Positions 2,481 to 37,808 are shown, counted from the stretch's first letter. The stretch is DNA of 64,000 bases from Christensenellales bacterium (GCA_050952545.1 JBMNLD010000002.1:106889-170888), one strand, 5' to 3'. Notes: a model not told the origin generated them from the letters alone. A program made the numbers and translations.

Positions 2481-2504
2481 TGGTGGGCAATAAGGGACTC
2501 GAAC
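2481..2504 (-). repeat. att-like duplication of the 3' 24 bp of tRNA-Val(CAC)
   Basis: tggtgggcaataagggactcgaac is identical to 24185-24208 (T-loop through CCA of the tRNA). Confidence 0.9.
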
Positions 2505-2653
2505 TGTTGCAAGGCAACAGCTAGCGGCGAAGCCGCGTAACATAATTCGGTGTCCATGATATAAGCTAGACAGCGACAAGCAAAAGGGAGACATAGCAAA
2601 AATACGGACAAAAAGTCCGTATTTGCTATGCGACTATAAGCGCAGTCGTTGTC
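2505..2653 (-). repeat. tRNA-linked ~149-bp multi-hairpin element, full copy
   Basis: Its reverse complement aligns end to end with 37637-37785; 2559-2655 is identical to 24090-24186. Confidence 0.85.
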
Positions 2654-2654
2654 T

Positions 2655-3201
2655 GTGGGAACGGGTCAAATGGTGGACTTCGCCGAAACCGAGCGCATAG
2701 ACTATCACAAAGCGTTGGAACTCGCCCAAGCGGCAAACGACCAAAAGACCGTCGACAAACTGCTCAAAAACGGCGAGCCGCCGTACTACGGCGCAAACGT
2801 CGCGTTGAGAAGCGCCGTCTATTTGAACTATTTGAGCGCGCATATGCAGTCAGATCCCAACATAACAAACCCCGGCTATAACACGCTGCGCGACGTTTTT
2901 TCGTCGGAATACGGCGTCATCGACAAAATCAATTATTTCTTGGGCATAATTAACACTTTCGGGCATGTCTATCAGCAGCTTTACGGCATCAACCTCGCCG
3001 TCGACTGCAAAAAAAATCGATATTCCCGTCTATTTTTTCGAGGGCAGGTACGATATCAACGCGCCCGTTTCGCTCGTCGAGGATTATTTCGCGGTTTTGG
3101 AAGCGCCGCACAAGGAATTGATTTGGTTTGAGCATTCGGGGCACAGCCCGTGGATAAACGAACGGCAAAAATTCGTCGACGAGCTTCTGAAACTGCTTTA
3201 A
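2655..3201 (+). pseudogene. Alpha/beta hydrolase (proline iminopeptidase-like), C-terminal half; 5'-truncated with a +1 frameshift in an A8 run (3009-3016)
   Basis: Starts mid-domain (VGTGQMVD) right at the repeat junction; removing one A joins ORF 2649 to ORF 2965 (DCKKIDIPVYFFEGRYD...FEHSGHSPW, catalytic His motif). Confidence 0.75.
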
Positions 3202-3267
3202 TTGGATTTGATAACGACAAAGAAGAATAGGCAAGATAACGACCAAGCGAAAAACTAAAACGGAATT

Positions 3268-3660
3268 ATGGAAAACAAAAGAAAAAATTTAAGAAAAATT
3301 TTAACGGTTGCGGCGCTTGTTATTTTTGCGTTGCTTCTTTGCGCGTGTGCCGAAAGCGGAACAGTCAACGAAAACAAAACCGAACAAGCGTACACGGCGG
3401 TTTTTGAGGCGGCGACCGCGACAAAAACTCACGGGCTTAATTTGCGGGCGGGCGACAGCCTCTCCGTTGCCGTTTCCTTGGACGGCGGCGACATAAGGTT
3501 GAGCATAGCCGACCCGAGCGGCGTCGAAATTTACGCGGGAAACGCGCTCGTTACGACGTCTTTTACAATCGACGTCCATTCGGACGGCGTTTACACGGTG
3601 ACTTTAACGCTGAAAAAGGCGAGCGGTCAAGTCGGCGTAATCAAATTCCAAAATCAATAA
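3268..3660 (+). CDS. Hypothetical lipoprotein
   Basis: Basic N-terminus, hydrophobic stretch and lipobox-like LLLCAC; beta-rich Ig-like remainder. Confidence 0.65.
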   Translation: MENKRKNLRKILTVAALVIFALLLCACAESGTVNENKTEQAYTAVFEAATATKTHGLNLRAGDSLSVAVSLDGGDIRLSIADPSGVEIYAGNALVTTSFTIDVHSDGVYTVTLTLKKASGQVGVIKFQNQ

Positions 3661-4538: not shown

Positions 4539-4540
4539 AA

Positions 4541-6941: not shown

Positions 6942-7283
6942 ATGCATCTTAAAAAGTTAGATAATTATTTGCAATTTTTTGATGATATTAAAGATGATTA
7001 TGTTCAGGTCGAAGAAGCTAAGCTAATACGAAAAGATATGTTAGATATCGATACTGTTAAACTTTCTAACATAAAAAACGATTTGTTATTTTATTTAGAT
7101 AGTTTTGGAGATATTGATAGTGAGTCATACAATGGATATGGTTCATTGCCTTTAATAGGGATTACTTGGAATAAATACTTATTAGTTGGATTGTGTAGAA
7201 GTTATTTTACCAATGAAATATTAATAAAATATGATGGAAAACAGTATAAAAAAATTACTTATAAGCTGTCTTTAAACCATTGA
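6942..7283 (+). pseudogene. C-terminal fragment of a larger hypothetical protein
   Basis: No RBS; the frame stays open upstream into the MFS junction; AT-rich codon usage. Confidence 0.45.
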
Positions 7284-7298
7284 TTTAAACCTTAAAAT

Positions 7299-7368
7299 AC
7301 ACAATAGTTGAAAAATATTACGAAAATATTGTAAAACTATTGTGTTTTTTCTTTTTGTTGTTTATAAT
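7299..7368 (+). promoter_or_regulatory. Sigma70-type promoter overlapped by an 11-bp inverted repeat (putative operator)
   Basis: TTGTGT(7340-45)-N17-TATAAT(7363-68); arms ACACAATAGTT (7299-7309) and AACTATTGTGT (7335-7345). Confidence 0.6.
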
Positions 7369-7397
7369 ATAAGTGAAATCAATGAGAGGTGTAGGAT

Positions 7398-7625
7398 ATG
7401 GAAAACAAAAAAGATAATTTTAAGCGTATATCTGAAAATAGAGTATCAAAGATTTTGACTTTACTTTCTCAATTAACTAATTTAAGTAATTCATCTTTTT
7501 ACGAATATACTGATGAGGACATAGAGAAGATATTTAATGCTATTGATGAAGAAGCTAAGAAATCAAAAGAAATATTGCTGAAGTCAAATGATAAAAAAAG
7601 AAAGAATAAAAGGTTTGAGTTATAG
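7398..7625 (+). CDS. Small conserved helical protein (putative regulator/adaptor)
   Basis: GAGAGG RBS; FKRISENRV..L..L.NLSN...YEY..EDI.KIF pattern that I recall from small genes heading RM/defence-associated operons. Confidence 0.7.
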   Translation: MENKKDNFKRISENRVSKILTLLSQLTNLSNSSFYEYTDEDIEKIFNAIDEEAKKSKEILLKSNDKKRKNKRFEL

Positions 7626-7637
7626 GAGGTAACAAAT

Positions 7638-9593
7638 ATGTCAAATAATAAGTGGAGATTCCCTGCAAGTAATCATGGTGAGAAAAAAGGTATTAGTAGT
7701 GGTGATACAGAAACATTTAAAAAAGCACCTTTCCAAGCATTTGCAAGAGAAATCTTGCAAAACTCTATTGATGCAAGATCAAGTGATGAAGAGCCAACAA
7801 GAGTAGAGTTTTCTCTTTTCAAAATAAAAACTGATGATATTCCAGGCAAGCAAGAGCTATATGATGCTATAAGACGTTGTAAAGAGTTCTGGTCATATAA
7901 AAAAGATTATGTTGCTGAATATGATTCAATGTTGACAGCACTTAGTGCCAAAGAGATTGTCTGTCTTAGAGTTAGTGATTTCAATACAACTGGATTGATA
8001 GGTGTAGAAACTACTAGACAAGAAAATAATAAATTTTTAGCATTAGCTAAAGGTACTGGTGTTTCTGAAAAAAGTGGAGTCATGGCTGGAGGTTCAAAAG
8101 GTGTTGGTAAAAACGCTGCATTCCTAATGTCATCTTTGCGTACAGTTATTTATTCTACAAAAAGTAATCAAGATATAGATGGTAATTCAGGTAGTTTTGA
8201 AGGATCTATTGGTGTCGCTGAACTAGTCTCTGGTTATGTTGATGATACCATTATTGAAAATAGAGATTATACTCAAGGAACAGGATATTACAGTATGGAC
8301 GACCTAAATGGTGCAATGAACTCCATAATGAATCTTGATCCAAATTTTACTGAGAGAAATAATGAATTTGGAACTGATATTTACATTCTTGGTTTTAACG
8401 ATGAACTTGATTGGGAAAAAGAAGTAATTAATAGTTTGTTAGATTCGTTTATGGTAACCATAGTTCGAGGTGAACTTGAAGTTAATATTAATGGTAATGA
8501 AATCAGTAAAGATACAATTGAAGATCTTGTTTATGACAATTCCATTATTAATAAAGGTAATAGAAGCAATGTTATTTCTCAATATAGACTTATTACTAAT
8601 AAAGATAATAAAGTAGTTCCGTATGATATTGAAACTGAATATGGTATTTGTCAATTATATATCCTTCCTTATGATAAATCTGAAGAAGAATTAGCAACTC
8701 ATAAATGTGCCATGATAAGACACCCATTAATGAAAATCAAAGATGAGTCTCTTGGCTCTAGTTTTAGAGTATCTGCTATGTGTATCATAAATGAAGGTAC
8801 ATTAGGTATTAAACTTAGAGATATTGAAAATGCGCAACATAAAGATTGGGAAGTCAACAGAATAAAAGATGTATATGAGAGAAAAGAAATACAAGGAATT
8901 ATTAATAGTATTAAACAACAAATAAAAGACAATGTTATTGATTGCCTTAAACTTGGTGATAATGAACCATTAGATCCTAATGGTGCTGGAGACTTCTTGC
9001 CAGATGTTGATAATGGTGGTGATTCAAGTTCTGGTGCTAATGGTCAACAAAAACCAATTGAAAATGTATCAATTTCTAAGCCAAAACCTAATAAAGTTAT
9101 TGAAAGAAATACTAATCAAGAAAATGATAATGGTAACGGTCTAGAACCAGATATTGGAGAAGTTGATGATAGTATTGATGGTGATGTTCAACATCCTACT
9201 GGTACAAACGATAAATCTGGTGAAGGAAGACACCCAGGAAGTGAATCTAGTGGCGAGCAAGAAGGTGAAAATATTGTCTTTAAGCGTGCAAAATTATCGG
9301 GTGTTAAGTATAAAGTGATTTCTACTAATAAAAATGAAGGAAGAATCAGAATAATTTTTACTGCACCAATTGATTTTGAAACATGCTATTTGAATATTGC
9401 TTTATTAGATGATGCCAATAATTCTGTTGCTGTAGATATTGAAGAATTGAATTGTAACGGAATTGATATCTATAGTGAAGATAAAAAAGAATATGGTCCA
9501 TTTAAAATTACTCGAAATGAGAAGATTGTTTTGAATGTAAAGACTAATTCAAGTGGTTATTTTGCTAGTGAGGTGAAAGTAATATGCAAGTAA
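7638..9593 (+). CDS. GHKL (HATPase_c/MORC-like) ATPase domain protein with an acidic low-complexity linker
   Basis: Bergerat motifs REILQNSIDA, DFNTTGL and GGSKGVGK; GGAGG RBS; G/D/E/N-rich region near aa 450-545. Confidence 0.8.
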   Translation: MSNNKWRFPASNHGEKKGISSGDTETFKKAPFQAFAREILQNSIDARSSDEEPTRVEFSLFKIKTDDIPGKQELYDAIRRCKEFWSYKKDYVAEYDSMLTALSAKEIVCLRVSDFNTTGLIGVETTRQENNKFLALAKGTGVSEKSGVMAGGSKGVGKNAAFLMSSLRTVIYSTKSNQDIDGNSGSFEGSIGVAELVSGYVDDTIIENRDYTQGTGYYSMDDLNGAMNSIMNLDPNFTERNNEFGTDIYILGFNDELDWEKEVINSLLDSFMVTIVRGELEVNINGNEISKDTIEDLVYDNSIINKGNRSNVISQYRLITNKDNKVVPYDIETEYGICQLYILPYDKSEEELATHKCAMIRHPLMKIKDESLGSSFRVSAMCIINEGTLGIKLRDIENAQHKDWEVNRIKDVYERKEIQGIINSIKQQIKDNVIDCLKLGDNEPLDPNGAGDFLPDVDNGGDSSSGANGQQKPIENVSISKPKPNKVIERNTNQENDNGNGLEPDIGEVDDSIDGDVQHPTGTNDKSGEGRHPGSESSGEQEGENIVFKRAKLSGVKYKVISTNKNEGRIRIIFTAPIDFETCYLNIALLDDANNSVAVDIEELNCNGIDIYSEDKKEYGPFKITRNEKIVLNVKTNSSGYFASEVKVICK

Positions 9594-10498
9594 AGAATAA
9601 AATATTTCCATACCCAGTTTTAAATAATAATAAGTTATATTCAAATTTTCCGGATGCTTCATTTGAAATAGTTTATGAAGCTGAAGAAGATGAATTTGCA
9701 TATATCCTAAAAAACATAAAATTCTCAACAGATAGTAAATTAATTAATGACTTGTTTGATAATCAAAAGATAGATATTAAACTAGTGGTTGAATGCTCTG
9801 ATACAGTCTTTAGAAAAGCTTTTAATATCAGTAAAGAGCCAAAGAGTATCCGACTTTTGAAAAATGACTTTACTGAAAAAGTTGATGTTTCTATGTTTGC
9901 AGTTGCAAAGGAAAACTTTAGAATTTCATCAAACGAATTTGATGAAGACTATCGCGACATAGAATTCGAAATTGAAAAGTATGATATTTTATGTGCAAAT
10001 GATGGCTTCAATGTTAGATTCAGACATGATGAAGCAGAGAATAATTTAGTTAAATCAATTTTTTCAATAATTCCAAGCGATAATATTAACGATGGTACAT
10101 TTGAAGTTAATTGTGAGTTAGGAAAAAAGATTACTATTTCTATATCTGACGCTGATTTTAAAAATATGAATATAGTTAATACTGTTCCAACATATAAAGA
10201 AGTAGTATTTAATATGCTATTAGTTCCTGCATTGATTGAAGGTTTGACTTTATGTTTGAAAACTGTCCAAGAAGGAACTGATGATTTAGATGATATTGGA
10301 AATAAATACGTTTGGTTTAGAAGTATATTAATGTCATATAAACGTTTATACGGAAAAGATATTACAATTGATGAATTTAAGAGTTCATCACCTGTTCTTT
10401 TAGCACAACAATTGTTAGGAAAGCCACTAGGCGCAGCTTTACATAAGCTTGTTGTTGAAACAAATAAAATAGACGAAGGAGGAAATGATAATGAGTAA
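9584..10498 (+). CDS. Hypothetical protein (N-terminal FPYPVL motif)
   Basis: 304-aa ORF overlapping its upstream and downstream genes. Confidence 0.75.
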   Translation: MQVKNKIFPYPVLNNNKLYSNFPDASFEIVYEAEEDEFAYILKNIKFSTDSKLINDLFDNQKIDIKLVVECSDTVFRKAFNISKEPKSIRLLKNDFTEKVDVSMFAVAKENFRISSNEFDEDYRDIEFEIEKYDILCANDGFNVRFRHDEAENNLVKSIFSIIPSDNINDGTFEVNCELGKKITISISDADFKNMNIVNTVPTYKEVVFNMLLVPALIEGLTLCLKTVQEGTDDLDDIGNKYVWFRSILMSYKRLYGKDITIDEFKSSSPVLLAQQLLGKPLGAALHKLVVETNKIDEGGNDNE

Positions 10499-10850
10499 AA
10501 TCAACATTAAAATGCTTTCAGAAGATGCATTAGTATATTTGAAAGAAAACGCTGAGAGTATTGCAAAGAAAATTGCAGAAAATGAAGATAATTCTTGGAT
10601 TAAAAATACCATTCCTCAATCTATACCTCTATTTGTTGAAAAGAAATTACAAATTGAAGATTTTGATTTGTTAGATAATCCGGAATCAGCCGACAAGAAT
10701 ATAGATTTTCAAAACTCTGTAAAAATTTATGAGTCGTTAAAAGAACTTCCTAGATATATTTTATGCGACCAAAGATTCTGGCTTTGGCTTCACTTGGATA
10801 AGTTCTACAAAACAGTTAGAAATATGATGAAGATTAGAGGGAAATATTAA
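10491..10850 (+). pseudogene. DUF6339-like protein, C-terminally truncated
   Basis: KMLSEDALVYLKEN...NSVKIYESLK.LP.....DQRFWLWLH resembles the DUF6339 N-terminal half; stops at ~120 aa, shorter than I recall for the family. Confidence 0.55.
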
Positions 10851-11352
10851 GATCTATTAATTGTAATGGTTCAGAAAGAAGAACTGGAAGAGAAGCTATA
10901 TTCTGGGGAATGGATAATAATATTCCTTTTCCGCAGGCAAATGATATGACAAAGATTATAAAACTTGTTATGGCTGATGAATCTGTGATTAATGATAAGG
11001 CAAAAGCCATGGAATTAATCCATGTAAGTACGACTAGACAAGTAGCATATTATTTCTCTGCACTTCAATTTTTAAAGTATCTAAAGCATGATAAGACATT
11101 TACTGATAGAGCAAATAATTTGATGAAAAATGAAGGTAAGATTATCCTAGATATTTATAATCAGTTATTAAATAATGAGATGTTTGGTAATGCTTATAAG
11201 CAATTTAAAGATTCAAAAAAAGTAAATGTTGAAGTCATTAAAATGAAATAAGAAAAAACAAGCCTAATTTAGCGGACTCAACTGTAAATAGAAGAGTATC
11301 AACAATTAAGGCATGGGTTGAATGGATGTATGGCATTGATGGTCTAATGTAG
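10838..11352 (+). pseudogene. C-terminal remnant of a restriction-endonuclease-associated winged-helix protein (DUF7226-like), frameshifted near 11240
   Basis: IPFPQAND...TRQVAYYFSALQFL, then in another frame STVNRRVSTIKAWVEW*; one added A at attaaaatg joins the two frames. Confidence 0.55.
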
Positions 11353-11373
11353 ACTTTATACATCTTATTTTAC

Positions 11374-11508
11374 AGTAAATAATTGTAGTGATTTTATTCT
11401 TAAAATTACATTTAGTGGAAACTAATGGTATAGGTATGCTAAAACCTGTTGTTTAGGTGAAAAAAATAACATTTACAAATTTAAGGTCAAATAACTATAG
11501 AGTTATTG
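11374..11508. repeat. ~135-bp diverged direct repeat, copy A
   Basis: About 111/135 identical to 23742-23875 by manual alignment; identical blocks gtatgctaaaacctgt and aaggtcaaataactatagagt. Confidence 0.85.
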
Positions 11509-11608
11509 TAGGTTCAGTAAATTGATAAAATAACTCTTTTGTTATATAATTATTCCGATAATCTGAAGTACCAGAAAGTTGAGGAAGGGCTCAAAGGAGG
11601 TACTTGCT

Positions 11609-11839
11609 ATGGATTATCGAAAAGCCATATTAGATAAAGAAGCAACAAGTATTAGACTTAGGTCCCTTAGAATCAAAGCTAATCTAACACATGATAGACT
11701 AGCTGCATTACTTCAACTAAACACACCTCGTGTGATTTATGATTGGGAATGTGCAAAGAAGATGCCTAATGTTGAAAACTTGTATAATCTGGCTCTAATA
11801 TTTAATATGAAAATGGAGGATTTACTTGTAACCAAGTAG
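11609..11839 (+). CDS. XRE-family helix-turn-helix regulator
   Basis: LRSLRIKANLTHDRLAALL...VIYDWE..K.MP...NL..LA..F; AGGAGG RBS. Confidence 0.85.
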   Translation: MDYRKAILDKEATSIRLRSLRIKANLTHDRLAALLQLNTPRVIYDWECAKKMPNVENLYNLALIFNMKMEDLLVTK

Positions 11840-11929
11840 ATCCTTCTTTTTATTTTTGAACTATAGTACATTTTGAAATTTGACACTTCTGTTATAATAA
11901 TGACGAAAACTGTAAATATGTTCTATATA

Positions 11930-11959
11930 TTGAAATAAATTTCAATAATATGATATAAT
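11930..11959 (+). promoter_or_regulatory. Sigma70-type promoter with extended -10
   Basis: TTGAAA(11930-35)-N18-TATAAT(11954-59), with TG at 11951-52. Confidence 0.55.
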
Positions 11960-12144
11960 TATAGTTGGATACAAATGCATGTTCTGAAACTGTGGAGTAA
12001 GAACTTTACCTATATGGAATGTTGGAGCGAATCTTATGGTTGGGATATACCATATGAGGAGTAAACCAATAGTTAAAAGCTAAATTTCAAGAGTGGTATT
12101 GCGTGTCTAAACAAAATAACATGTGAAGAGGATGAATGTTATTG

Positions 12145-12180
12145 AAGTGGCGATAGGCTAATACCTACCGTCACTTTTTT
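12145..12180 (+). terminator. Intrinsic terminator immediately upstream of the helicase operon
   Basis: AAGTGGCGATAGG-CTAATA-CCTACCGTCACTT stem followed by a T-run. Confidence 0.7.
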
Positions 12181-12203
12181 GGTTTTAAGGAGGTGTCAAT
12201 AAC

Positions 12204-13106
12204 ATGAAGAAAAAGAGCAAGGTTATAGGCAAGGACTACGAAAAATTAGAGAAAGAAAATCGATGCGACAGGATCGATTATTATGGCTTGATTGCCAAAG
12301 ATGGCAGAATAAAAATTGACACAAAACGTTATAAAAAATTCTTTACTATTCCAGATAGTAAAATTGAAAATAGACACTCCGTTTATTACCTTCCGACTAA
12401 ACAACATAGATCTGAATATCAATGTAATTGGTTTAGAGATCTATTAACAGGTTATAAACAATTATGGTTTAAAGAATATAAAAGCTTCATTGATAGTATT
12501 AAAACTCCAAAGCAAGTAGAAGATGATGCAAGAGTCGCACATTTAGCTGATGGAGTGCTTGATTATGAAGAAGCTAATGAAAAAGCATTTATAGCAGGCA
12601 TTAAAAGAGCAAAAGATTATAAAGTAATTATTAAATCTTTATACGCTCAATTTTTCCATCAACTAATGTCTAGCATAGATGCATTATGCTTAAAGATGCT
12701 AACTGCCTGTGGCTATAAAGAAGAAGATTATACAAAGAAGCAATTTGATATTTATATGCAGGGTTTGCAGGGTAACAATGCAATATCGTTCAGACAATAT
12801 GATAATTACAAACTTTATGATAGAGCATTCACTGTTTGGAACTTTCTAAAGCATAACTCTCTTAGATCATATAAGATCTTGAAACAATGGTATCCTAATA
12901 TGGTTTGGGACCCAGAAGATAGATATCAAAATGGTGAATCTGCACTTTCTGTTGTTAAGCTAGATGAGAAATTCATCTTAGATTGTTTGGATAACTTACA
13001 TTTATTCTTTGATGAATTATGTGCGAGAGCTTTTAATGAGAATGCTGAAGACGCACAATGGGATTATGATGATTACTTCTTGAAGACGTCGTACAAGATC
13101 AAATAG
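12204..13106 (+). CDS. Hypothetical protein, possible divergent HEPN domain
   Basis: AAGGAGGT RBS; helical; WNFLKHNS resembles the NxxKH HEPN variant. Confidence 0.6.
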   Translation: MKKKSKVIGKDYEKLEKENRCDRIDYYGLIAKDGRIKIDTKRYKKFFTIPDSKIENRHSVYYLPTKQHRSEYQCNWFRDLLTGYKQLWFKEYKSFIDSIKTPKQVEDDARVAHLADGVLDYEEANEKAFIAGIKRAKDYKVIIKSLYAQFFHQLMSSIDALCLKMLTACGYKEEDYTKKQFDIYMQGLQGNNAISFRQYDNYKLYDRAFTVWNFLKHNSLRSYKILKQWYPNMVWDPEDRYQNGESALSVVKLDEKFILDCLDNLHLFFDELCARAFNENAEDAQWDYDDYFLKTSYKIK

Positions 13107-13147
13107 ATGTTATTGTCAATCCACTAGATATATAGGAGGACAAAAGA

Positions 13148-16100
13148 ATGGCATATATATTTTTATCTTTTAGTGAACATTTAAATAGAGGAGCAAACTC
13201 AAAAAATGATTTTTATAATTTATCATTAAATGAACAATTTGAATTGCTTCAAAGAAGAATCCCATTGGAAAGACAAGTATCTAATTTTAATACTTTTATT
13301 GAAACATGTTTCCCTACTAACTTTAATAAGAAATATTATATTTCTTGCCCTAATTTCTTAAGAGAGAAACATCAAGTAGCAGAAGACAAACCATCTTTTT
13401 TAAATAATGTAGTTATTCGACCAGAATTAACTTTATCAATGAAAAGAGTTCTACCTGACAATCAAAACATCATCTTAATTGGTGATATTTATGAAGGTGG
13501 AAAATTAAAAATGTTACAGATTAAGGGATTACAATTAATTGATGATTCAATGGAATCTCCATATGATGTAAGAGTGGATGATTATTCGGTTTGTAATTCA
13601 TTTGAACGAGGATATTGGAGTATAAATCATGTTGATTACAATGATACATTTTTTACGCCTAACAACATTAAAACGATTATAGATAATTGCTGGACTGTTG
13701 AACATCCTGAGGAAATTAGAAAAACATATGAAGTTTGGAACAAGTATATTGGATTTAGAAAATACTATCTTCAAGAACAATCAAAACGTAATTTCAAATT
13801 AGATAGAGCTATGTTTGTTGAAGCATATGCTGTAAATAGAAAAGATTATAAAAAGAATGCCTCAATTTATGATGAATATCTTCTTGATGGAAGAGATGAA
13901 TTCAAATGGGGAGATATGATTGTTTTATCTGAAAAGATAGAAGATGCTGAAGAATTTCCACTTATTAGATTGGATATTGAAAGAAATAGAAAAGCATTTA
14001 ATGAAGCAAAAATTACTAAACGTGGAAAATTGGTTAATGAAGAAGAACGTAAAATTCGTTCATTATCTAGTGATAATGTATTTATTACTTCTATTGATCC
14101 TGAAAGCAAATCTCAGCATAAGGATAGAAATGGTAATCAACAACAAGTTACATTCGGTGAATTATTAAATGCTGGATATGCATTAGGCGATAGATTTAAA
14201 ATTGTTTCTTATGATATCGAACCCACTGATCATTTAGAAGAGTTAGATTTAGCATATACAAGAGATATAGATAAATCATATAAAAATATAGATGCTAAGT
14301 ATGAGAAGATTATTAAAGAAGAAGTAAAGCAAGCAGTTAATTTATATGAAAAAGAATTAAATAAACAAGCTAAAGAAAGAATTGATTTTTATAAAAATGA
14401 ATTAGATAGTTCTTTAGAACAAGATGTTTTAGAAAATAAAGATAAAAATATTATTAGTTTAATTGATAAAAAGAAAAAAGAAATTGAAACTAATGTTACA
14501 AAGAATATTAAACAAGATAAAAAAGAAAAAGATAATGAATATGCTTTAAGAATAAAAGCATTAATTGAAGATGAAATATCTAAAATTGATGTTAAGTCAT
14601 ATTATGTTGAAAGAAATTCTAAGTTATTACAAGACAATGCTAAAAGTATTGAAATGGAATTAAAGAGATTATTAACACAATATGAAGCAAAAAAGAATTC
14701 TGAAATCACTAACAAATATAAAGATGATGTTAGAAATGAAAAGATTAAATCAAAAGAAGAACTTGATGCTAAGTTAAAGTTTGATAAAGAAAAAGCTATT
14801 GATGAGGAAACAATTATTAGATTCTCATTATATTTTAGATTAGGAGATCCTAATAATGTTATTTCAGACAAACAAAAGAAGGTCGTAGATTCATGCGAAT
14901 ACATTGTTTATGATAATCGTGCTGAAAAAGCTAAGATTTCAAGACAAGAGGCAGCCTTAGATAATTTCTATTCTGGATATGTTAAGAATCCATATCTTTC
15001 AACATATCTTTTTAACCCAGAAGAATTAGATACAGTTAAAGCAGAACCTAGTGATTGGATATGGTATTTAGAATCTCTTAATGAAAAGCAAAAAGAAGCA
15101 GTTAGAAAGGCAGTTTCAAGTAATGGTATATTCTTACTTCAAGGTCCTCCAGGAACTGGTAAAACACAAGTAATTGCTGAAACAGTAGCTCAGTTAATTA
15201 AAAAAGGTAAAAAGGTATTAATTTCATCTGAAACACATAAAGCAATTGATAATGTATTTGAAAGATTACCTAAAATTGCGGAAATCGTACCTATTAGATT
15301 AATTCCTTCTAATAATGATAAAAAGAAAGAAAACGAATATGATCCAAAATTCCTAGTAGATAATTTCTATTTAAATATTTCTTCTAATATGAAGAAAGCT
15401 GTTAATAGATATAAGAATTTTGAAAAGAACAAAATAGAATTTGCTGAAAACTTTGATAAATTAAAGTTGGCAAAAGCCAAAATAGAAAAATCTCAAAAGG
15501 TTTTAGATAAGGCTAACGAAGAAATCAAAAAGTTTGAAGACAATGCTAAAGACATTAATTCTAAGATATCAGTATTAAATGATAAAAAGGACTTGGTCAG
15601 AATTGATATTGATATCTTAAGAAGAACTAAACGTCATATTGAAAATGATAATTTGAGACCTGATGAAGATGTAAAGGTTGACTTGATTGTTGATGTAAGA
15701 AAGAAACTAGAACCTTTATTTGAAAAAGATGTTTATATCGATGATGATTTAGGTCAATTATTAAAGAATATCAATTCAATTAAAAATGATGAAATAGAAC
15801 GTGAATTAGCAGTTATTAATCCTGAATCCAATAAAACTATTCTTGAAGTTAAGAAAAATGATTTAAAGGCTGAATTAAATAAATATGTTGATGAATTAGG
15901 AGACATTATTGATACTAATAATGAGGAAAAAGTTGAAAGAAATTAAAAATGAATTAAGAAAGGTTTTGAAAGAACTTAAGGCTGAATCAGTTGGCGTATC
16001 TTTAAACGATTTAAAACTTAATAAGATTTTTAATTATTCATACTTAGTTGCAAATATTTCTTTAATTCCAGAAGTTATTAGAACTGTAAAAGATAGAATT

Positions 16101-17657
16101 ATTGAGATTAAATCTTCAACGATAGAAGTTCTAAATAAAGAATTACGTACTATTGAAGATAAACAAGCAGAACTAGATAAAGAAATAGATTCATTAAAGC
16201 AACAAATAAAAGTAATTAATGAAAATATTATTGATATTCAAGAAAGAAATGATGTTAAAGATATTCAAGAAGCCAAATATAAGCTTGAGAATGATTTAAT
16301 AAAATTCTTTAAAGATTTTGAAATTGCTGAACCTTATAAGGATGTAGATGAAGGACTAAAGATTATTAAACGTAAATGGTCTGAGCTTGAAGATGATTTC
16401 CAAGCGAAGGAACAAGAAAATAAAGAAAAAATACCTATGTATGAAAAGATCGCAAATTACATCACTAGTGAAGATGTAATTGAAGAAGATAGAAAGGTAT
16501 TTACTAAAGACTTGTTTGAAAATGCTAATGTATTTGGTATTACATGTACATCTAACGATAGATTCAGCGGAAGAAATGTTGATGCATTATCTGAATATAA
16601 TATCGATGAGATTGATATTAAATCCGTTGGTATTGATGTAGTTATTATCGATGAGGTTTCTAAATCAAGTTTTATAGATTTATTGATACCTATTCTTTAT
16701 GGTAAAACAGTTATCCTAGTTGGAGACCATAGACAATTGCCTCCAATGTATGAATTCTCCAAATTAAGAGATGATGATTTTGAAGGATTAGATGAGACAA
16801 TTATTAATAAAGAAATTAATAAAGAGTTTACTAAATTGTATGAAGAGTGTTTCTTCAAAACTCTATTTGAAAGAATACCAGATAGTTATAAAACTATGTT
16901 AGTTCAACAATATAGATGTCATGAACATATTATGAATGTATTTAACCACTTCTATAAAGGCGAATTAAAACTAGGTTTTGCAGGTCAAAACAATAATAAA
17001 CGTCATAATGTTAAATTACTATCAAATGGTAGAAATATTATCGAACCAGATAAACATATTTATTTTGTTGATTGTAAGCAAAATGAAACGCATGAAGCTG
17101 ATTCAACATCTATGTACAATACTGGTGAAGCTAGAGTTGTAGTTGAATTAATCAGAAAAATGAATACATATTTCAAGTCGCATCCAGAACTTGAAAAGCT
17201 AAGCATTGGTGTTATTTGTACATATGGAGACCAAGCTAGAAGAGTAAAAGAATTACTTAAGAGTGAAAAGGTTAAAACAGATGCATTTAAAACAGATGTT
17301 GAAAAAATGATTGTTTCAACTGTCGATGATTTCCAAGGTGATGAAAGAGATATTATCATTTTATCTACAGTTAGAAATCCTGAAAATCCAAAAAGAAGTG
17401 ATCCTGGATTTATCCTAGCTTATCAAAGAATTAATGTTGCTTTATCTAGAGCAAGAAGAATGCTTATTATGGTAGGTAACAGAAAATATCTTGAAGAAAA
17501 AGGTGTGATTGATTTACCAGATGTCTATGGTCGTGTTGGTAAAGAACAAAGAAACTTCAGAGTTTATGAAGAAATCTTAGCTACTATAGAACGCTATGGT
17601 AAAGTAATCGAAGATATTGATGTATTAGATGATAAGGAGGCGAGAATAAATGGATAA
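13148..17657 (+). CDS. Upf1/DNA2-like SF1 helicase (~1500 aa, long coiled coils), split into ORFs 13148-15946 and 15909-17657 by a +1 frameshift at an A5 run (15927-15931)
   Basis: Motifs QGPPGTGKT and SSETHKAIDN in part 1; IIDEVSK, LVGDHRQLPP, QYRCH, TVDDFQGDERD and RINVALSRAR in part 2; removing one A reads EEKLKEIK. Confidence 0.9.
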
Positions 17658-19782: not shown

Positions 19783-20867
19783 GTCAACAAGTAACCGTTG
19801 ATTATCAAGGTGTATCTATTCAAGTACAAGCTAAATGTGACACAGCTGTTCATTCATTGTGTCAAATAGATAAAGTGCTTGATAGAATACATAATACAGC
19901 AGATAAACTTGAAACTGCTAAAGTAAAAGAGTATGAAGCTTATTTGCAAAAATCCAAGGAAACAATCAAAGAAAAGATTGAAGCGTTTAAGAAGACTCTA
20001 GAAAAATACAAAGAAGCTAGGGCTTATTCAGTTAATAATCATCAACCAGATTATCAACAATTCATTAACTTTACTAATAAGGTTCAAGCTGAATCAGAAG
20101 AATTAATTAGAACAGTTAATGAATTAACTGGTTCTAAACTTGCAGTAATAGATCAGATGATTGATGAAGGCTTATTAAATGCTGGTCAGGAAACAACTCA
20201 AGCTATGTTAGATAAATTGCATGGTGTAGTTTCAATCTCAAGTGACATTTTATCCAAGATAAATAACATTGAAGATGTTTCATTAAGAGAACTAGCATAT
20301 AAAGAAATCCTTAAGAACGATAAACTTAGCTTTGATGAAGTAATCACTAAAGCACAAGATGAATATGATATTCTTTTAGGAAAACAAACAAAAAAGGTTA
20401 TTCAAGAATATAAAGAAGAGCTTACTTCTAAAGGTATTACTACAGAAGAATTAGATAAAGCTAAATCTATTGATGAAGCTAATGCTATTGCTAATGAAGC
20501 AATTACTGATGAAACGGTAAGAAAAGAAACTTTAAAAGTTATTATTAAAGCAATCAAAGATAGAGGATTCATTGTTGATACAAAGAAGAATCTTAAGATT
20601 GATAAAGAAAGAAATATTGTTAAATTAGTTGCATTAAAAGCATCTGGACAAATGGCTGAGTTTGAAATTCAACTTAATGGTAAGTTTATGTACCACTTTG
20701 ATGAATATGAAGGCCATGCATGTAAGAAAGATATAGAACCATTCTTAGAAGATTTAAAGAATATCTACGATATCAATATTCTTCATGAAGAAGTAACGTG
20801 GGAAAATCCAGATAAGATTCAAACTCAAAAATATCAATACATAAACAAAAACAAGGGTACTAATTAG
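19779..20867 (+). CDS. Coiled-coil protein with a C-terminal DUF2997-like domain
   Basis: ATGA overlap with the upstream stop; helical N-terminus; C-terminal FDEYEGHACKKDIEPFLEDL. Confidence 0.6.
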   Translation: MSQQVTVDYQGVSIQVQAKCDTAVHSLCQIDKVLDRIHNTADKLETAKVKEYEAYLQKSKETIKEKIEAFKKTLEKYKEARAYSVNNHQPDYQQFINFTNKVQAESEELIRTVNELTGSKLAVIDQMIDEGLLNAGQETTQAMLDKLHGVVSISSDILSKINNIEDVSLRELAYKEILKNDKLSFDEVITKAQDEYDILLGKQTKKVIQEYKEELTSKGITTEELDKAKSIDEANAIANEAITDETVRKETLKVIIKAIKDRGFIVDTKKNLKIDKERNIVKLVALKASGQMAEFEIQLNGKFMYHFDEYEGHACKKDIEPFLEDLKNIYDINILHEEVTWENPDKIQTQKYQYINKNKGTN

Positions 20868-20878
20868 GAGGTAAACAC

Positions 20879-22696: not shown

Positions 22697-23225
22697 GTTT
22701 AATGTAGCATATATAAAATTATGCACTAAAACTGAAGGTCCGTATAAGAGATGCTGCATTTGGTTTCAAGGATGTAACATCAATTGCAGAGGATGTTGTA
22801 ATAAGAATTTGCAACCATTAGTTCCAAATCATATAGTTACATTAAAAGAACTTATCGATATTGTTAAAGAAGCTAAAGATAAGTTTGATATAGAAGGTAT
22901 AACTCTCAGTGGTGGAGAGCCTTCTTTACAAACTGGTTTAAAATACTTTAATAATGAGATTCGTAAATTAGGATTAGGAATCATAATGTTTTCAGGAAAA
23001 AGCAAAACTTATCTAGATAAAAGTCTAGTTGAATCTGTTGATTTATTAATTGATGGTCCGTTTATTGAAGAACAACTTGATGACAAGAGAGTATTATTAG
23101 GTTCTAAGAATAAGGAACTATCTTTTATTACTGATAGATATAAAAAAGAAGAAGGATACTTCGACAATCCTATATCTATTGAAGAAGTAACAGCAGAAGA
23201 TTATATCTTCATAAATGGGGACTGA
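22671..23225 (+). CDS. NrdG/PFL-activase-like radical SAM (4Fe-4S) protein
   Basis: WFQGCNINCRGC (CxxxCxxC), GITLSGGEP and DLLIDGPF. Confidence 0.9.
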   Translation: MDSALTSIKFNVAYIKLCTKTEGPYKRCCIWFQGCNINCRGCCNKNLQPLVPNHIVTLKELIDIVKEAKDKFDIEGITLSGGEPSLQTGLKYFNNEIRKLGLGIIMFSGKSKTYLDKSLVESVDLLIDGPFIEEQLDDKRVLLGSKNKELSFITDRYKKEEGYFDNPISIEEVTAEDYIFINGD

Positions 23226-23227
23226 TT

Positions 23228-23728
23228 ATGGATAAAAAAAGAATAGAAAGTGAAATGAGAGAATTAGAAATTAAAATTCATTATCATTTTAATGACATAT
23301 CATGGCTTGCTAAAGCTATGGGTTCTATAAAAATACCTGTTCCAGGTCAAGGAAAGAATGGTTCTGAATATTCTAATGAAGGCTTGGCTACTGTTGGTGA
23401 TACTATATTAAAATCAGTTATTGCTGATAAGTTTTATAGAGAAGGAATAAGAACCAAAGGTGAGATTACAATTAAAAAGAGCGGTATAGAAGACAATGCA
23501 ACAATGCATGATGTAATGATCTACGAAGGTTTAATTGATTATTCTTATAACGATTTACATTTCTTCAAAGATCCAAATATTCCTGACCATGAGCAAGTTG
23601 TGCATAAGGCACATGATCCATATATTGAAGCTATGGTTGGAGCTGTGTATTATGATTCAGGAAATTATGACACAACTAAACGCTGGATTCTAAAGTGGTT
23701 ATTACCTCTTTTAGAGAAGTATAAATAG
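23228..23728 (+). CDS. Ribonuclease III-domain protein lacking a dsRBD (Mini-III-like)
   Basis: NEGLATVGDTIL and YIEAMVGAVYYD; only 166 aa. Confidence 0.8.
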   Translation: MDKKRIESEMRELEIKIHYHFNDISWLAKAMGSIKIPVPGQGKNGSEYSNEGLATVGDTILKSVIADKFYREGIRTKGEITIKKSGIEDNATMHDVMIYEGLIDYSYNDLHFFKDPNIPDHEQVVHKAHDPYIEAMVGAVYYDSGNYDTTKRWILKWLLPLLEKYK

Positions 23729-23741
23729 CACCAATTCTAAT

Positions 23742-23875
23742 AGTAAATAATGTTAGTTATTTGTATCTCAAAATGACATTTAATTGAAAGTAATGGAAAA
23801 TGTATGCTAAAACCTGTCGTTTAAGTGAAAATTTTAATTTAACAAATTGAAGGTCAAATAACTATAGAGTGATTG
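23742..23875. repeat. ~135-bp diverged direct repeat, copy B
   Basis: See copy A; begins 14 bp after the RNase III-like stop codon. Confidence 0.85.
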
Positions 23876-23891
23876 ACACTTAAATAGATAG

Positions 23892-23920
23892 AAAGGTAGG
23901 AGTGATTCTTACCTTTTTTC
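23892..23920 (+). terminator. Intrinsic terminator at the end of the AT-rich operon
   Basis: AAAGGTAGGA-GTGAT-TCTTACCTTT followed by T-runs. Confidence 0.65.
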
Positions 23921-24035
23921 TTTTTACAACATAGCTACTATATAGGTCGTTAATTGAAAAGTATTATCTTAAGCAAATTATATTTACTAGATAAATCTAG
24001 TAAAATGGAAGCAATAATAAAGGCGTGGTGGTAAT

Positions 24036-24095
24036 TTGGATAAGAAAGAATACTTAAGTCGATATCATAATTTAATAGAACGAATTGAAATATAA
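24036..24095 (+). pseudogene. 5' stub of a phage-type gene (DUF1492/ArpU-like), cut at the repeat junction
   Basis: TTG start after GGTGGT; reads MDKKEYLSRYHNLIERIE and then enters the repeat at 24090. Confidence 0.3.
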
Positions 24096-24184
24096 GCTAG
24101 ACAGCGACAAGCAAAAGGGAGACATAGCAAAAATACGGACAAAAAGTCCGTATTTGCTATGCGACTATAAGCGCAGTCGTTGTC
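24090..24184 (-). repeat. tRNA-linked multi-hairpin element, tRNA-proximal partial copy
   Basis: 24090-24186 is identical to 2559-2655; abuts the CCA of tRNA-Val. Confidence 0.9.
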
Positions 24185-24260
24185 TGGTGGGCAATAAGGG
24201 ACTCGAACCCCTGACTTCCTCCATGTGACGGAGGCACTCTACCAACTGAGTCAATTGCCC
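24185..24260 (-). tRNA. tRNA-Val(CAC)
   Basis: 76-nt cloverleaf GGGCAATT...CCACCA; anticodon arm CCTCC-GT CAC AT-GGAGG; GTTCGA T-loop. Confidence 0.95.
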
Positions 24261-24264: not shown

Positions 24265-24340
24265 TGGTGGAGATGAGGGGGATCGAACCCCTTACCTCTT
24301 GAATGCCATTCAAGCGCTCTACCAACTGAGCTACACCCCC
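24265..24340 (-). tRNA. tRNA-Ala(GGC)
   Basis: 76-nt cloverleaf GGGGGTGT...CCACCA; anticodon arm CTTGA-AT GGC AT-TCAAG; G3:U70. Confidence 0.97.
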
Positions 24341-33982: not shown

Positions 33983-34036
33983 AATTTACCAAAATATATA
34001 AACGGTCTGCCGTTAAAAATATTAATGAGGTTTACT

Positions 34037-34681: not shown

Positions 34682-34810
34682 ATCCCGGGGCAAGTAAAGG
34701 TCAAGAGATAATACCGCCATATGGCGGTATTATCTTATAGGTTGTCGAAAACAAGCATTCTTAAATTATCTATGGTCTGATAGATAACACAGCCGTTCAG
34801 GCTGTAATAA

Positions 34811-35210: not shown

Positions 35211-35390
35211 TACACACCTCCAATGTAAAGTGCTCTTTACATTTTATAATAACATATATTATCAAAATGTCAAGAACTTTTTACATTTTTTATGACAGAC
35301 GGATATAAACATAATTTGACAAAGAATATAAATCCATAGATAATGTAAGAGGAATATGTTAAAGAATAAATATATTGTCGGAATGAATGC

Positions 35391-36398
35391 ATGAAAAGTA
35401 TTACGAAATATCAAATAACGGACGCGCAAATTCGGGCGGCTTTTATCGCGGCGGGAATAGGCGGAGTAAGCGAAACAGAGGAAATTTCTGACGGTTGGTA
35501 CAACAGCGTTTATTATGCGGTTGACAATAATAGCAATAAGTATGTGATGAAAATCGCGCCCGAAAAGAGCGTAAAGGTATTGACGCACGAACGGGGTATT
35601 ATGGCGGCGGAGGTTGAATTCTACCGCTTGCTGCGTGAAAAGACGGGGATAAAGACGCCTAAAATCATATATTCGGATTCTAGCGGAGGTATTATTCCGA
35701 CCTCATACTTTATTATGGAGTTTTTAGACGGCGAACGGCTTGACAAGGCAAAGCTGACACGGGAGGAAAGGCGTAAAGTTAAAGAGAAATTGGCTTGGAT
35801 TCTCGCGGAATTTCATAGATTGAAAGGCTCGGGATACGGGTACGCGCAAACGGGGCTTCATAATAACTGGAAAGACGCCTTAACGCATATGACAGGAATG
35901 CTTATAAGCGACGCCGCCTCGTTTAACAAAAAATGCAGGGTCGGCGAAAGGTTAATGTCATACATAGACAAATTCGCGGACGCGCTGAATAACGCCCCGT
36001 GCACGCTTGTGAATTTCGATCTCCACGCAATGAATATTTTCTGTAAAAATGTTAACGGCGAAATACAATTAAGTATTTTAGACCTCGAACGCGGTTTCTG
36101 GGGCGACCCGATAGGAGATTTTGTTTCCGTCGAAATGTTTAAGCCGTTTAATAAAAAAGAAATCATTGCCCTCTACAACCGTTACGCCGATGTGAAAATC
36201 GGCAAGAGCAGAGAGGAGCAGATCCGCTATTACCTGTTAAGCGCCTATCTTGCCGCGGTAATGTATACCGAACGCTTTTCAAGATTTAAGGGTATAAGTA
36301 AATTTATTAGCCCCGTCTATCTCGCCGGCACCGTCGCATGCAAACTCCTCGCCCTGCAAGCCTTCTCGGCACTGAAGAGACTAGAAAAAGAGGGGTAA
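35391..36398 (+). CDS. Aminoglycoside/choline phosphotransferase (APH-like kinase) family
   Basis: VMKIAP, YFIMEFLDG, VNFDLHAMNI and ILDLER. Confidence 0.85.
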   Translation: MKSITKYQITDAQIRAAFIAAGIGGVSETEEISDGWYNSVYYAVDNNSNKYVMKIAPEKSVKVLTHERGIMAAEVEFYRLLREKTGIKTPKIIYSDSSGGIIPTSYFIMEFLDGERLDKAKLTREERRKVKEKLAWILAEFHRLKGSGYGYAQTGLHNNWKDALTHMTGMLISDAASFNKKCRVGERLMSYIDKFADALNNAPCTLVNFDLHAMNIFCKNVNGEIQLSILDLERGFWGDPIGDFVSVEMFKPFNKKEIIALYNRYADVKIGKSREEQIRYYLLSAYLAAVMYTERFSRFKGISKFISPVYLAGTVACKLLALQAFSALKRLEKEG

Positions 36399-36514
36399 GG
36401 TGCTTTTCCAAATATGCCGATATCGGCAAGATATCTAATTTATGTTACGAATAATACTTTGATTGTTTGCCGATAATATGTTATAATAATCAAGAAGGCC
36501 ATAGGAGGATCGCG

Positions 36515-37405
36515 ATGAATTATTTATCGGTAGCGGATACTGCTAAAAAGTGGAATATGTCCGAGCGTACCGTCCGGAATTACTGTGCTCAAAAAAAGAT
36601 ACCCGGTGCGTTCCTTACGGGAAAGACATGGAATATACCCGAGAACGCCGCAAAGCCGAACAGGATAAATGCGAGAACAACTGCGCCGAAAACTTTGCTT
36701 GAAATTCTGAAAGCGGAGCAAGCAGCGAAAATCTCCGGTGGCATATATAATAAGGTTCAGATCGAACTGACCTACAATTCCAACCATATCGAGGGTAGCC
36801 GTCTCACCCATGACCAAACGCGCTATATCTTTGAGACGAACACCATCGACGCTGTCGGAGAAACAATGAATGTAGACGACATCGTGGAAACGGTGAATCA
36901 CTTCAAATGCATCGATATGATTATAGCGCAAGCGAAGTATATGCTATCGGAGAAGTTTATTAAGGAGTTGCATCTTACGCTCAAGAGCGGCACCAGCGAT
37001 GCGCGGTCCGGCTGGCTTGCCGTGGGCGATTATAAGCGTATGCCTAACGAGGTGGGCGGCAGAGAAACCACGCCGCCGGAGAAAGTCTCCGCTACAATGG
37101 GCACATTGCTTGCTGAGTATAACGCGACTAAAGAAAAAACGCTTGATGAGATTATAGATTTTCATGTTCGCTTTGAGTCCATTCATCCTTTTCAGGACGG
37201 CAACGGTCGCGTCGGGCGGCTTATCATGTTTAAAGAGTGTCTCCATAACAACATCGTACCGTTCATTATCGACGACGATATGAAGATGTTCTACTATCGG
37301 GGGTTGCATGAGTGGAACAGCGAGAAAGGTTATCTGACCGACACTTGTCTCGCGGCGCAGGATAAGTTCAAGAAGTATCTTGAGTATTTTAAAATAAGGT
37401 ATTAA
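36515..37405 (+). CDS. Fic family protein with an N-terminal HTH
   Basis: HPFQDGNGRVGR Fic motif; N-terminal YLSVADTAKKWNMSERTVR. Confidence 0.92.
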   Translation: MNYLSVADTAKKWNMSERTVRNYCAQKKIPGAFLTGKTWNIPENAAKPNRINARTTAPKTLLEILKAEQAAKISGGIYNKVQIELTYNSNHIEGSRLTHDQTRYIFETNTIDAVGETMNVDDIVETVNHFKCIDMIIAQAKYMLSEKFIKELHLTLKSGTSDARSGWLAVGDYKRMPNEVGGRETTPPEKVSATMGTLLAEYNATKEKTLDEIIDFHVRFESIHPFQDGNGRVGRLIMFKECLHNNIVPFIIDDDMKMFYYRGLHEWNSEKGYLTDTCLAAQDKFKKYLEYFKIRY

Positions 37406-37560
37406 TCTGAGGATCTGAGTTAGATGAAAGGGCGTTATGTCGTTAAGCGTTCTAGGAAATCTTACCTTAATGAATATTGAAACTTGAGAGGGGACAGCGT
37501 AATTAATTAACCCCAATCAATTGACAATTTCTGAAAAAAGCAATAATATAATTCTGCAAC

Positions 37561-37636
37561 GGGGATATGGCTCAGTTGGTAGAGCGATGCGTTCGCAATG
37601 CATAGGCCAGGGGTTCGAGTCCCCTTATCTCCACCA
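37561..37636 (+). tRNA. tRNA-Ala(CGC)
   Basis: 76-nt cloverleaf GGGGATAT...CCACCA; anticodon loop TT CGC AA; TTGACA promoter upstream. Confidence 0.95.
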
Positions 37637-37808
37637 GACAGCGACTGCGCTAATAGTCGCATAGCAAATACGGGCTTTTTGCCCGTATTTTGCTATGCCT
37701 CATTTTGCTTGTACGCTATCCGGTTGCAATTCGGTGCACCGAATTGCGTTACGCGGCTTTGCCGCTAGCTGTTGTTTTGCAACAGCGCAATTCCCCTCAT
37801 CCCCACCA
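37637..37808 (+). repeat. tRNA-linked ~149-bp multi-hairpin element plus degenerate tRNA-Ala 3' duplication (cccctcatccccacca)
   Basis: Aligns with the reverse complement of 2505-2653; contains a perfect 22-bp palindrome gcaattcggtgcaccgaattgc. Confidence 0.85.

Follow-up and report, generated by a model that had tools for sequence, protein, structure and literature searches.

The 3′ ends of tRNA genes are classic landing sites for genomic islands and prophages, and to our knowledge the known elements that use them carry their own integrase. Cis-mobilizable elements (CIMEs) are elements that have lost their integration genes and kept attL and attR (PMC5704250). Here, we describe a hairpin-rich repeat found in a stretch of 64,000 nt from a Christensenellales bacterium (GCA_050952545.1 JBMNLD010000002.1:106889-170888). 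This whole stretch is called the window, and positions are counted within it. The repeat follows the genes for tRNA-Ala(CGC) and tRNA-Val(CAC), and it was found to belong to an apparently undescribed family of gene-less insertions of ~150-190 nt that are specific for the 3′ ends of genes for tRNA and transfer-messenger RNA (tmRNA). With a probability of roughly 60%, we take the element to be mobile, now or once, non-autonomous, and recombining at the T-loop of tRNA genes.

Like CIMEs and other integrative elements that target tRNA genes, the element sits at the tRNA 3′ end, lies between direct repeats that extend from T-loop to gene end, leaves the tRNA intact, accretes in tandem and has no integration genes of its own (PMC5704250). 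Unlike them, it measures only ~150-190 nt, has a conserved fold over its whole length, occurs with one scaffold at many tRNA species, and contains an internal antisense copy of its target. No integrase-bearing parent with the ends of the element was seen in the window's genome or in the loci fetched from a second family of the same order (f42, see below), in a survey that was non-exhaustive. Miniature transposable elements with inverted repeats (MITEs) resemble it in being small, non-coding, multi-copy, patchily distributed, foldable and served by an enzyme in trans (PMC10969869). The element differs from them in that it lacks terminal inverted repeats (its ends read GACAGCGAC... and ...GCAACAG) and has no matching insertion sequence (IS). 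Its target, a tRNA end, is strict, and the flanking repeat is 19-26 nt with a fixed left edge, whereas the duplication made by a MITE is short and of fixed length. Derivation as a MITE from the IS1182-type IS resident in the same genome was rejected: the ends of that IS are different, and it duplicates 4 bp. The family lacks defining features of both CIMEs and MITEs.

The element and its relatives at tRNA gene ends

The first-pass annotation of the window had placed the element directly behind the CCA of both tRNA genes. For tRNA-Ala(CGC) the copy does start at the base after CCA. For tRNA-Val(CAC) the claim stood for a truncated copy; the full copy lies 21.4 kb away and abuts the gene only in cargo-free strains. 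Identity between the Ala copy and the far Val copy, estimated by eye at about 80%, was measured as 83% over 149 nt. The near and far Val copies were 99% identical over 102 nt, with 24090-24184 aligning to 2559-2655. A 29-mer containing the covarying hairpin occurred three times, against 0.00 expected. The Ala copy is fixed: across four metagenomes it was sequenced as deeply as its flanks, and neither mismatches nor an empty allele were seen. A promoter-like TTGACA-17-TAATAT (37521-37549) lies upstream of this tRNA gene.

Each full copy is followed by a tRNA-like 3′ fragment. The one behind the far Val copy is an exact 24-nt end of tRNA-Val (2481-2504), as annotated. The one behind the Ala copy had been read as a degenerate end of tRNA-Ala(CGC); the tmRNA 3′ end fits it better, at 20 of 21 positions, an origin that had not been foreseen. 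On the minus strand, the Val fragment is succeeded at once by a clean intrinsic terminator. Since this native terminator stands directly behind it, the Val fragment appears to be the original end of the gene, moved downstream.

The genome of the window has 1.83 Mb, 44% GC and 46 tRNA genes plus the tmRNA gene; the organism is common in anaerobic digesters. Eight copies of the window's subfamily (type 1) were found, 78-89% identical to one another, and two of a second subfamily (type 2, 168 nt). All ten lie downstream of a tRNA in the same orientation, so that the restriction to tRNA 3′ ends noted in the window extended to the genome. Three type-1 copies (Ala, Val, Tyr) directly abut the CCA. 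At tRNA-Ser(CGA) a 1.87 kb IS alone intervenes, and at tRNA-Pro a ~190-nt relic. At Ser(GCT), the remnant of a prophage tail module, carrying Fic/AbrB genes as well as an IS3 transposase, lies between, and at Ser(GGA) a low-GC islet with an IS21-like transposase and Doc. The type-2 copies form a tandem pair behind a damaged tRNA-Asn copy, and a tRNA-Asn tail from C56 stands behind each unit. The array ends in a 78-nt native flank that is also found after the nearby intact tRNA-Asn; hence, gene and flank were duplicated around the element array. The damaged copy, a pseudogene with the anticodon region deleted, lies ~190 nt downstream of the intact gene (G000:C1:313577-313785, minus strand; G000 denotes the window's genome, C1-C3 its contigs). 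Most tRNA genes of the genome have no element and possess their own terminators. CCA is genome-encoded in all element-bearing tRNAs considered.

As had been stated, the element encodes no protein. Only short mechanical open reading frames (ORFs) were seen and none was conserved: the frame after a shared ATG shifts among copies, and relatives lack that ATG. The statement that no Rfam family matches also held, scans at the gathering threshold returning only tRNAs; at E <= 1 the best match to the element was Termite-leu, with 20 bits against a threshold of 51. The searchable literature likewise contains no description of it.

BLAST against 60 relatives gave terminator-like pieces only, and exact-pattern scans with a 20-mer and a gapped 23-mer over genome, viral and metagenome collections gave one chance match. 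These searches failed because the family is too diverged; relatives were found solely by a covariance model, built from the eight type-1 copies. It matched full-length elements in f42. These occurred in 8 of the 18 genera (13 of 41 genomes), a single genome having as many as seven, and frequently lay at contig ends. A class-level search outside the order, in which only seven candidates per genome were scored, found none. About 28 of the 34 matches in f42 were preceded by a tRNA 3′ end or by a displaced ...CCA fragment from a tandem neighbour. The intact upstream tRNAs, lying 0-6 nt before the element, represented at least 8 amino acids and at least 12 anticodons (Ala, Ser, Val, Leu, Lys, Ile and Pro among them).

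An exact downstream repeat of the tRNA tail, 19-26 nt long, was present for 16 of the 34 f42 copies, and also at Val, Pro and Asn in the window's genome. Its left edge was C56 in nearly all cases (tRNA ...GGTT/C; element ...CCTTA/C or ...GGGA/C), with Val at G53, and its right edge varied from CCA to CCA+5. The footprint of integration at the T-loop that had been proposed from the window is supported, the boundary falling between U55 and C56 in nearly all copies. Directly behind the trailing fragment comes the native terminator or flank at Val, Asn and the Ser(GGA) locus of the f42 genome G148. Tandem arrays of element plus fragment occur, and scaffolds 86-98% identical stand at different tRNAs. 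The copies of the window are old, probably inactive members of an older subfamily.

Fold and antisense cassette

Taken alone, the eight type-1 copies gave only two covarying pairs. When 36 sequences from both lineages were aligned, 89% of the paired cells held a pair, against 39-58% in slid controls. Compensatory changes were seen in 30 of 35 base pairs, and the covariation score was 0.53 against 0.16 in shuffles, none of 500 shuffles reaching 0.53. The individual changes noted earlier in the window, namely the covariation GGAC/GTCC versus GGGC/GCCC and the loop-only changes in GCGGC-TTY-GCCGC and CTGTTG..CAACAG, were present as described. Four or five hairpins had been claimed; the central part of the element is not a conserved hairpin, and a long-range helix, P1, had been overlooked. 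P1 pairs nt 1-9 with nt ~78-86 and covaries. Since the search model did not include P1, the alignment has no bias towards it. The outer bases of P1 vary freely and yet remain complementary (CACGGCAAC/GTTGCCGTG, AACACCGAC/GTCGGTGTT, AAAGTCGTC/GACGACTTT). H3 and H4 were paired in 90% and 83% of cases across the family, with compensatory changes. H2 has the core ACGGGC-T5-GCCCGT followed by ATTTTTG; a simple terminator scan does not call it, owing to its longer A/U-paired stem, and one RNA contig reads through it. Compensatory changes preserve the fold on the tRNA-sense strand, and G.U pairs occur on that strand. Both strands fold well as bare sequence. The fold of the Ala copy had z = -7.3.

In the f42 and type-2 copies, a stretch at an unchanging place in the element, nt ~91-114, is antisense, over ~15 nt, to positions 54-69 of the cognate tRNA; the pairings GATAGCGTGA/TCACGCTATC and GTGGTACGATACAGGA/TCCTGTATCGACCAC are examples. 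This cassette had not been foreseen from the window. Its alignment score averaged 6.75 with the cognate tRNA and 5.21 with non-cognate ones (permutation p < 0.0002), and the cognate tRNA ranked first for 10 of 24 cassettes. Within it, a conserved-looking CGAA or TGAA block complements TTCG or TTCA of the T-loop, and the pairing is in all cases broken near T-loop positions 57-60. Fold prediction on whole copies gave two domains, and pairing between the cassette and the trailing tRNA fragment closed the second of them (z = -9.8, -5.4, -4.2). Some sister copies share scaffolds at 86-88% identity and occupy different tRNAs, and one such pair lies within a single genome; between conserved flanks, every one of them bears a cassette that matches its tRNA. 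Type-1 copies retain only a generic GGAC-AC-CGAA at the cassette position. A founder tRNA for this type-1 sequence was sought and the candidates were rejected, no tRNA of the genome matching beyond the generic T-loop complement. A tRNA-specific mimic of the T-stem to the left of the junction was also discarded; the endings ...GGGA and ...CCTTA recur there whatever the tRNA.

Inverted copies of a site that pair within one strand and so mimic a duplex site are known from attP(+) of CTX-phi, used with XerCD (PMC3442271), and from integron attC (PMC4792948). At such sites a tyrosine recombinase exchanges one strand pair, which replication then resolves. As in these, structure in the element is conserved over sequence and a central stretch is unpaired, here at about T-loop positions 57-60. 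Unlike these, the element mimics the tail of a tRNA gene and not dif or attI, and its pairing partner changes with the target. The paired inverted copies are present in f42 and in the tRNA-Asn subfamily and absent in type 1. We regard this resemblance as indicating a possible mode of working and not membership. The bridge RNA of IS110 and the omega RNA of IS200/IS605 TnpB also set a structured scaffold beside a short, variable, target-complementary stretch, as in the element. Those elements leave no 20-nt direct repeats, and at least their autonomous copies encode the RNA beside the gene of their recombinase or nuclease. Moreover, no IS110-type or TnpB gene recurs beside its copies, and its cassette pairs with a sense copy inside the same element.

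Mode of insertion and rival explanations

Two junctions bear on how the tail is acquired. The tmRNA-type tail behind the Ala copy implies a crossover in the shared ATCTCCACCA. Upstream of the Pro copy there is a hybrid in which tRNA-Pro sequence, beginning in the anticodon stem, gives way at the T-loop to the acceptor strand of Ser(GCT); this implies a crossover in the shared GTTCAAATCTC. These junctions show that the tail can travel with the element. Together with the fixed left and variable right edge, they fit recombination within the tail better than plain duplication of the target.

A complete element begins 0-5 nt after the CCA with domain 1, a closing helix of 6-10 bp around a long, A/U-rich, terminator-like hairpin. 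The ~15-nt antisense cassette, two small hairpins and the sense copy of tRNA positions 56-76 follow, the cassette and this trailing copy pairing to close domain 2. The tail of the tRNA gene itself and the trailing copy form the direct repeat around the element. Insertion may proceed by recombination at the T-loop between a chromosomal tRNA gene and the tail copy carried by the element, probably as a folded single strand, the cassette and tail of which imitate the double-stranded target, with the enzyme supplied in trans. After insertion, the tRNA would keep a working 3′ end and gain the terminator-like hairpin of the element. As a tentative extension, which we hold to be possible and distinctly less probable than mobility itself, the family may be a new class of protein-less, retargetable element. 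In such a class, the cassette and tail of the folded single strand would rebuild the T-loop-to-acceptor duplex of the host tRNA. With every move to a new tRNA, the two would be remade from the target, for instance by repair of a heteroduplex between cassette and target, so that the target would be chosen by base pairing, with a host recombinase acting.

Several observations weigh against mobility by T-loop recombination. The type-1 subfamily of the window has no cognate antisense cassette, and the folded-target model consequently draws on the relatives. In the window's genome no copy has a recombinase as a neighbour, and around 27 loci in f42 no protein family was seen repeatedly within 3 kb. 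A co-occurring, trans-acting tyrosine recombinase, which the annotation had proposed to look for, was not found across the genomes compared: tyrosine recombinases do not track the element, and G100 has three copies and no detectable tyrosine recombinase. A ~300-aa recombinase of G073, G242 and G148, three element-rich genomes from a rabbit-gut genus, was considered as an element-borne integrase and rejected, being a syntenic chromosomal gene. One Xer-like enzyme of ~360 aa was present in 20 of 21 genomes tested, and nothing ties it to the element. Neither a circular form nor a clean pair of empty and filled orthologous sites was found for the element itself. A search with congeneric flanks gave paralogous copies only; at the tRNA-Ser locus of G148, rabbit-gut metagenomes showed lower depth over the element in one run and other contexts, with no clean empty site; and no variant was seen at the Ala locus. 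It is also a difficulty that conservative recombination would yield hybrid, dead tRNAs at each change of tRNA species, and the rewriting of tail and cassette is not accounted for. Finally, the alignment columns of H2-H4 were fitted to a model that already held these hairpins.

The annotation had left the choice between a non-autonomous mini-element and a structured RNA co-transcribed with tRNAs, a pair of proposals that the tRNA linkage, the covariation, the T-loop boundary and the want of an earlier description all support. We judge it unlikely that the element is primarily a functional RNA. In that case the repeat would be a structured 3′ trailer transcribed with the tRNA, terminating or stabilising the transcript, guiding 3′ processing or regulating the tRNA by antisense to positions 54-69, and its spread would be secondary. 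The fold with its G.U pairs on the tRNA-sense strand would suit such a role, as would the start of the element right behind the CCA, the terminator-like hairpin of domain 1 with its U-run, and the fixation of the Ala copy in four populations; the cassette could pair with the T-arm of the tRNA itself. A mismatch-free metatranscriptome contig (37584-37796) runs from inside tRNA-Ala through the whole element. However, this contig is the sole RNA evidence, at 2.6x depth and with DNA carry-over possible; the Tyr copy had no metatranscriptome coverage, and H2 is passed over by the terminator scan. Most tRNA genes of the genome do without the element, and the tail repeats, tandem arrays, patchiness and contig-end enrichment are marks of insertion and not of a vertically inherited RNA gene. 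A role of this kind is in any case compatible with mobility and may have been co-opted.

It is improbable that islands or prophages bearing an integrase entered tRNA genes, lost their interior and left the copies as scars, i.e., as CIME-like joined attL-attR sites whose shared sequence is that of the island ends. Repeats of the att type from T-loop to gene end are the classical footprint of an integrase, and tRNA 3′ ends are busy in this genome, as the prophage remnant at Ser(GCT), the islet at Ser(GGA), the cargo at Val and a copy of the tRNA-Leu tail attest. Against this, more than 40 copies in two families share the same complete architecture of ~150-190 nt with compensatory changes, which random deletions would not produce. 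No copy was seen with its halves split by an integrase gene, and the Val cargo, which lacks an integrase, stands between repeats of domain 1 and not between the two ends of the element.

We see equally little reason to favour a transposase-like or Cas1-like enzyme making staggered cuts between U55 and C56 and just past the CCA, with the tail as a 21-26 bp target-site duplication and the element proper lacking it. This would readily explain the exact cognate repeats at a dozen or more tRNA species, even for sister copies in one genome, with no need for rewriting of the element, and an upstream tRNA that is always intact. It would demand, however, a repeat of fixed length, and the observed one has a fixed left edge and a right edge anywhere from CCA+0 to CCA+5. 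The tmRNA tail at Ala and the Pro/Ser hybrid are impossible by plain duplication, the element has no terminal inverted repeats, and its internal antisense copy is left unexplained.

A retro-element, whose reverse transcriptase would be primed by the tRNA 3′ end or a T-loop-cleaved fragment and so attach the cognate tail, is hardly credible: T-loop-cleaved tRNA 3′ fragments do match the tail in size and a cognate tail stands at every tRNA species, but the reverse transcriptase family PF00078 is absent from 10 of 11 element-positive genomes (including the window's genome, G242, G073, G148, G100, G315, G208 and G328), occurs in one (G312) and twice in the element-negative G171, and the CCA is genome-encoded, with no RNA signature.

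Feature coordinates, the tRNA-Val cargo and other repeats

Table 1. Features of the element copies and their surroundings in the window
Feature	Position	Strand	Remark
170-bp tandem array, 2.7 units, 98% identical	1950-2416	-	each unit with CTTATTGCCCA-TAAACG, resembling tRNA-Val end and flank
Intrinsic terminator native to tRNA-Val, GCACACCC-ATA-GGGTGTGC-T5	2447-2470	-	read from sequence; immediately 3′ of displaced Val fragment
tRNA-Val 3′ fragment, exact, 24 nt (G53/T54 to CCA)	2481-2504	-	
Type-1 element, full, far Val copy	2505-2653	-	directly 3′ of tRNA-Val in cargo-free strains
Cargo, strain-variable, 21.4 kb, without integrase	2654-24089		~7000-24089 is the ~28% GC defence island
PDC-M33A/B	7638-10498	+	candidate defence match
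Mokosh-type MkoA helicase, split	13148-17657	+	candidate defence match
PDC-M37B/DolB-like AAA+ protein	20879-22696	+	candidate defence match
Truncated element copy, 95 nt (domain 1 + 11 nt)	24090-24184	-	first base directly after tRNA-Val CCA
tRNA-Val(CAC), intact	24185-24260	-	ARAGORN; Rfam
tRNA-Ala(GGC)	24265-24340	-	ARAGORN
tRNA-Ala(CGC), intact	37561-37636	+	ARAGORN; Rfam tRNA 70.3 bits; element begins at next base
Type-1 element, full, Ala copy, 149 nt	37637-37785	+	first base directly after CCA of tRNA-Ala(CGC)
Ala copy, domain 1	37637-37720	+	P1 strands, H1, H2, conserved block; covariation on 36 sequences
Ala copy, P1 5′ strand (long-range helix)	37637-45	+	
Ala copy, alternative hairpin H1	37641-46 with 37655-60	+	
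Ala copy, hairpin H2, long, terminator-like	37661-96	+	
Ala copy, conserved block CTC..TTTTGCTTG	within domain 1	+	
Ala copy, P1 3′ strand	37712-20	+	pairing imperfect in Ala copy
Ala copy, antisense-cassette position (X′)	37721-37745	+	only generic ..CACCGAATT left, complement of T-loop TTCG
Ala copy, hairpins H3 (GCGGC-TTT-GCCGC) and H4 (CTGTTGT-TTT-GCAACAG)	37753-37785	+	family-wide pairing, compensatory changes
Trailing tRNA-like 3′ fragment behind Ala copy, from C56	37788-37808	+	tmRNA 3′ end match 20/21

The DNA separating the two Val copies is an insertion that varies among strains, and a 97-102-bp direct repeat of element domain 1 brackets it. In metagenome run X2, a contig with zero mismatches comprised the tRNA-Val end, the full element, the fragment and the terminator, and the depth of the cargo was zero. 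In X1, X3 and X4 the cargo had a fraction of the depth of the organism, as for a minority of strains. These data (X1-X4) indicate that Val, in its basic state, is like Ala and Tyr. The assemblies collapse the domain-1 repeat into a 97-nt repeat node, the truncated copy being its upstream member. The last 40 nt of the cargo (24051-24090) were also found joined to unrelated sequence (AGAAGAAACAGTATATTGC...) in X1 and X3; hence, the island truly ends at 24090, and it or a relative of it exists in other contexts. No integrase was found in the 21.4 kb of cargo with Pfam and PADLOC. The same searches gave candidate defence matches in an operon-like block (7638-23728, plus strand, ~28% GC), which also contains a radical-SAM protein and an RNase III-like protein. 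The tandem array on the far side of the terminator looks like a separate relic of a different small element at tRNA-Val.

Other elements were encountered at tRNA ends of this genome. The 1.87 kb IS, which encodes a 545-aa transposase with DUF772 and DDE_Tnp_1 (IS1182/IS5 type), occurs in copies 99.5-99.8% identical (G000:C3:82180-84026, 414178-416024, 525240-527086 and 784893-786739, all on the minus strand). Partial copies lie at G000:C3:124035-124341 and 784587-784897; all of these copies are outside the window. The insertion point of the IS is precisely behind the CCA in the tmRNA gene and in four tRNA-Ser genes, and the 4 bp that it duplicates are the discriminator base together with the CCA (GCCA, ACCA; at Ser(GCT) the right-hand copy is TCCA). 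It is a second, unrelated element sharing the insertion point of the hairpin element. At Ser(CGA), the 80 nt upstream of the tRNA gene (G000:C3:84162-84240) recur inverted at 82010-82090, 88% identical, after a truncated element copy, which hints at an inversion or a template-switch event.

At the Pro locus (G000:C3:406888-407076), the ~190-nt insert has its own terminator and lies between the intact tRNA-Pro(CGG) and the Pro/Ser hybrid fragment. It is bounded by a 27-nt repeat from anticodon stem to T-loop and is the footprint of another element, using the anticodon-side sublocation. A separate family of ~50-nt hairpins (ATTCCGCCGTCC...GGACGGCGGAAT) is represented at G000:C3:407238-407299 and about 12 other loci, including sites directly behind tRNA-Thr(CGT), Glu(CTC), Lys(CTT) and Arg(CCG); these resemble repetitive extragenic palindromes or constitute a terminator module in common use. 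The tail of tRNA-Leu(CAA) recurs as an exact 20-nt copy at G000:C2:620882-620901 (minus strand), the gene being on another contig (C1:20898), and close to both contig ends there are several genes for large serine recombinases. This suggests a large integrated element across the assembly gap.

An element of ~150 nt that has no gene, occupies a dozen or more tRNA species and, in its well-preserved forms, carries a short cassette fitted anew to each target poses the question of how targets are recognised and re-learned without coding. Should the target be chosen by base pairing, one could turn the scaffold into a small, programmable tool for insertions. For the host, the element means a terminator-like hairpin for tRNA transcripts, and it means breaks in assemblies. 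At tRNA-Val its repeat brackets a defence island, and in this way the element shapes where variable DNA gathers in anaerobes of digesters and the gut.

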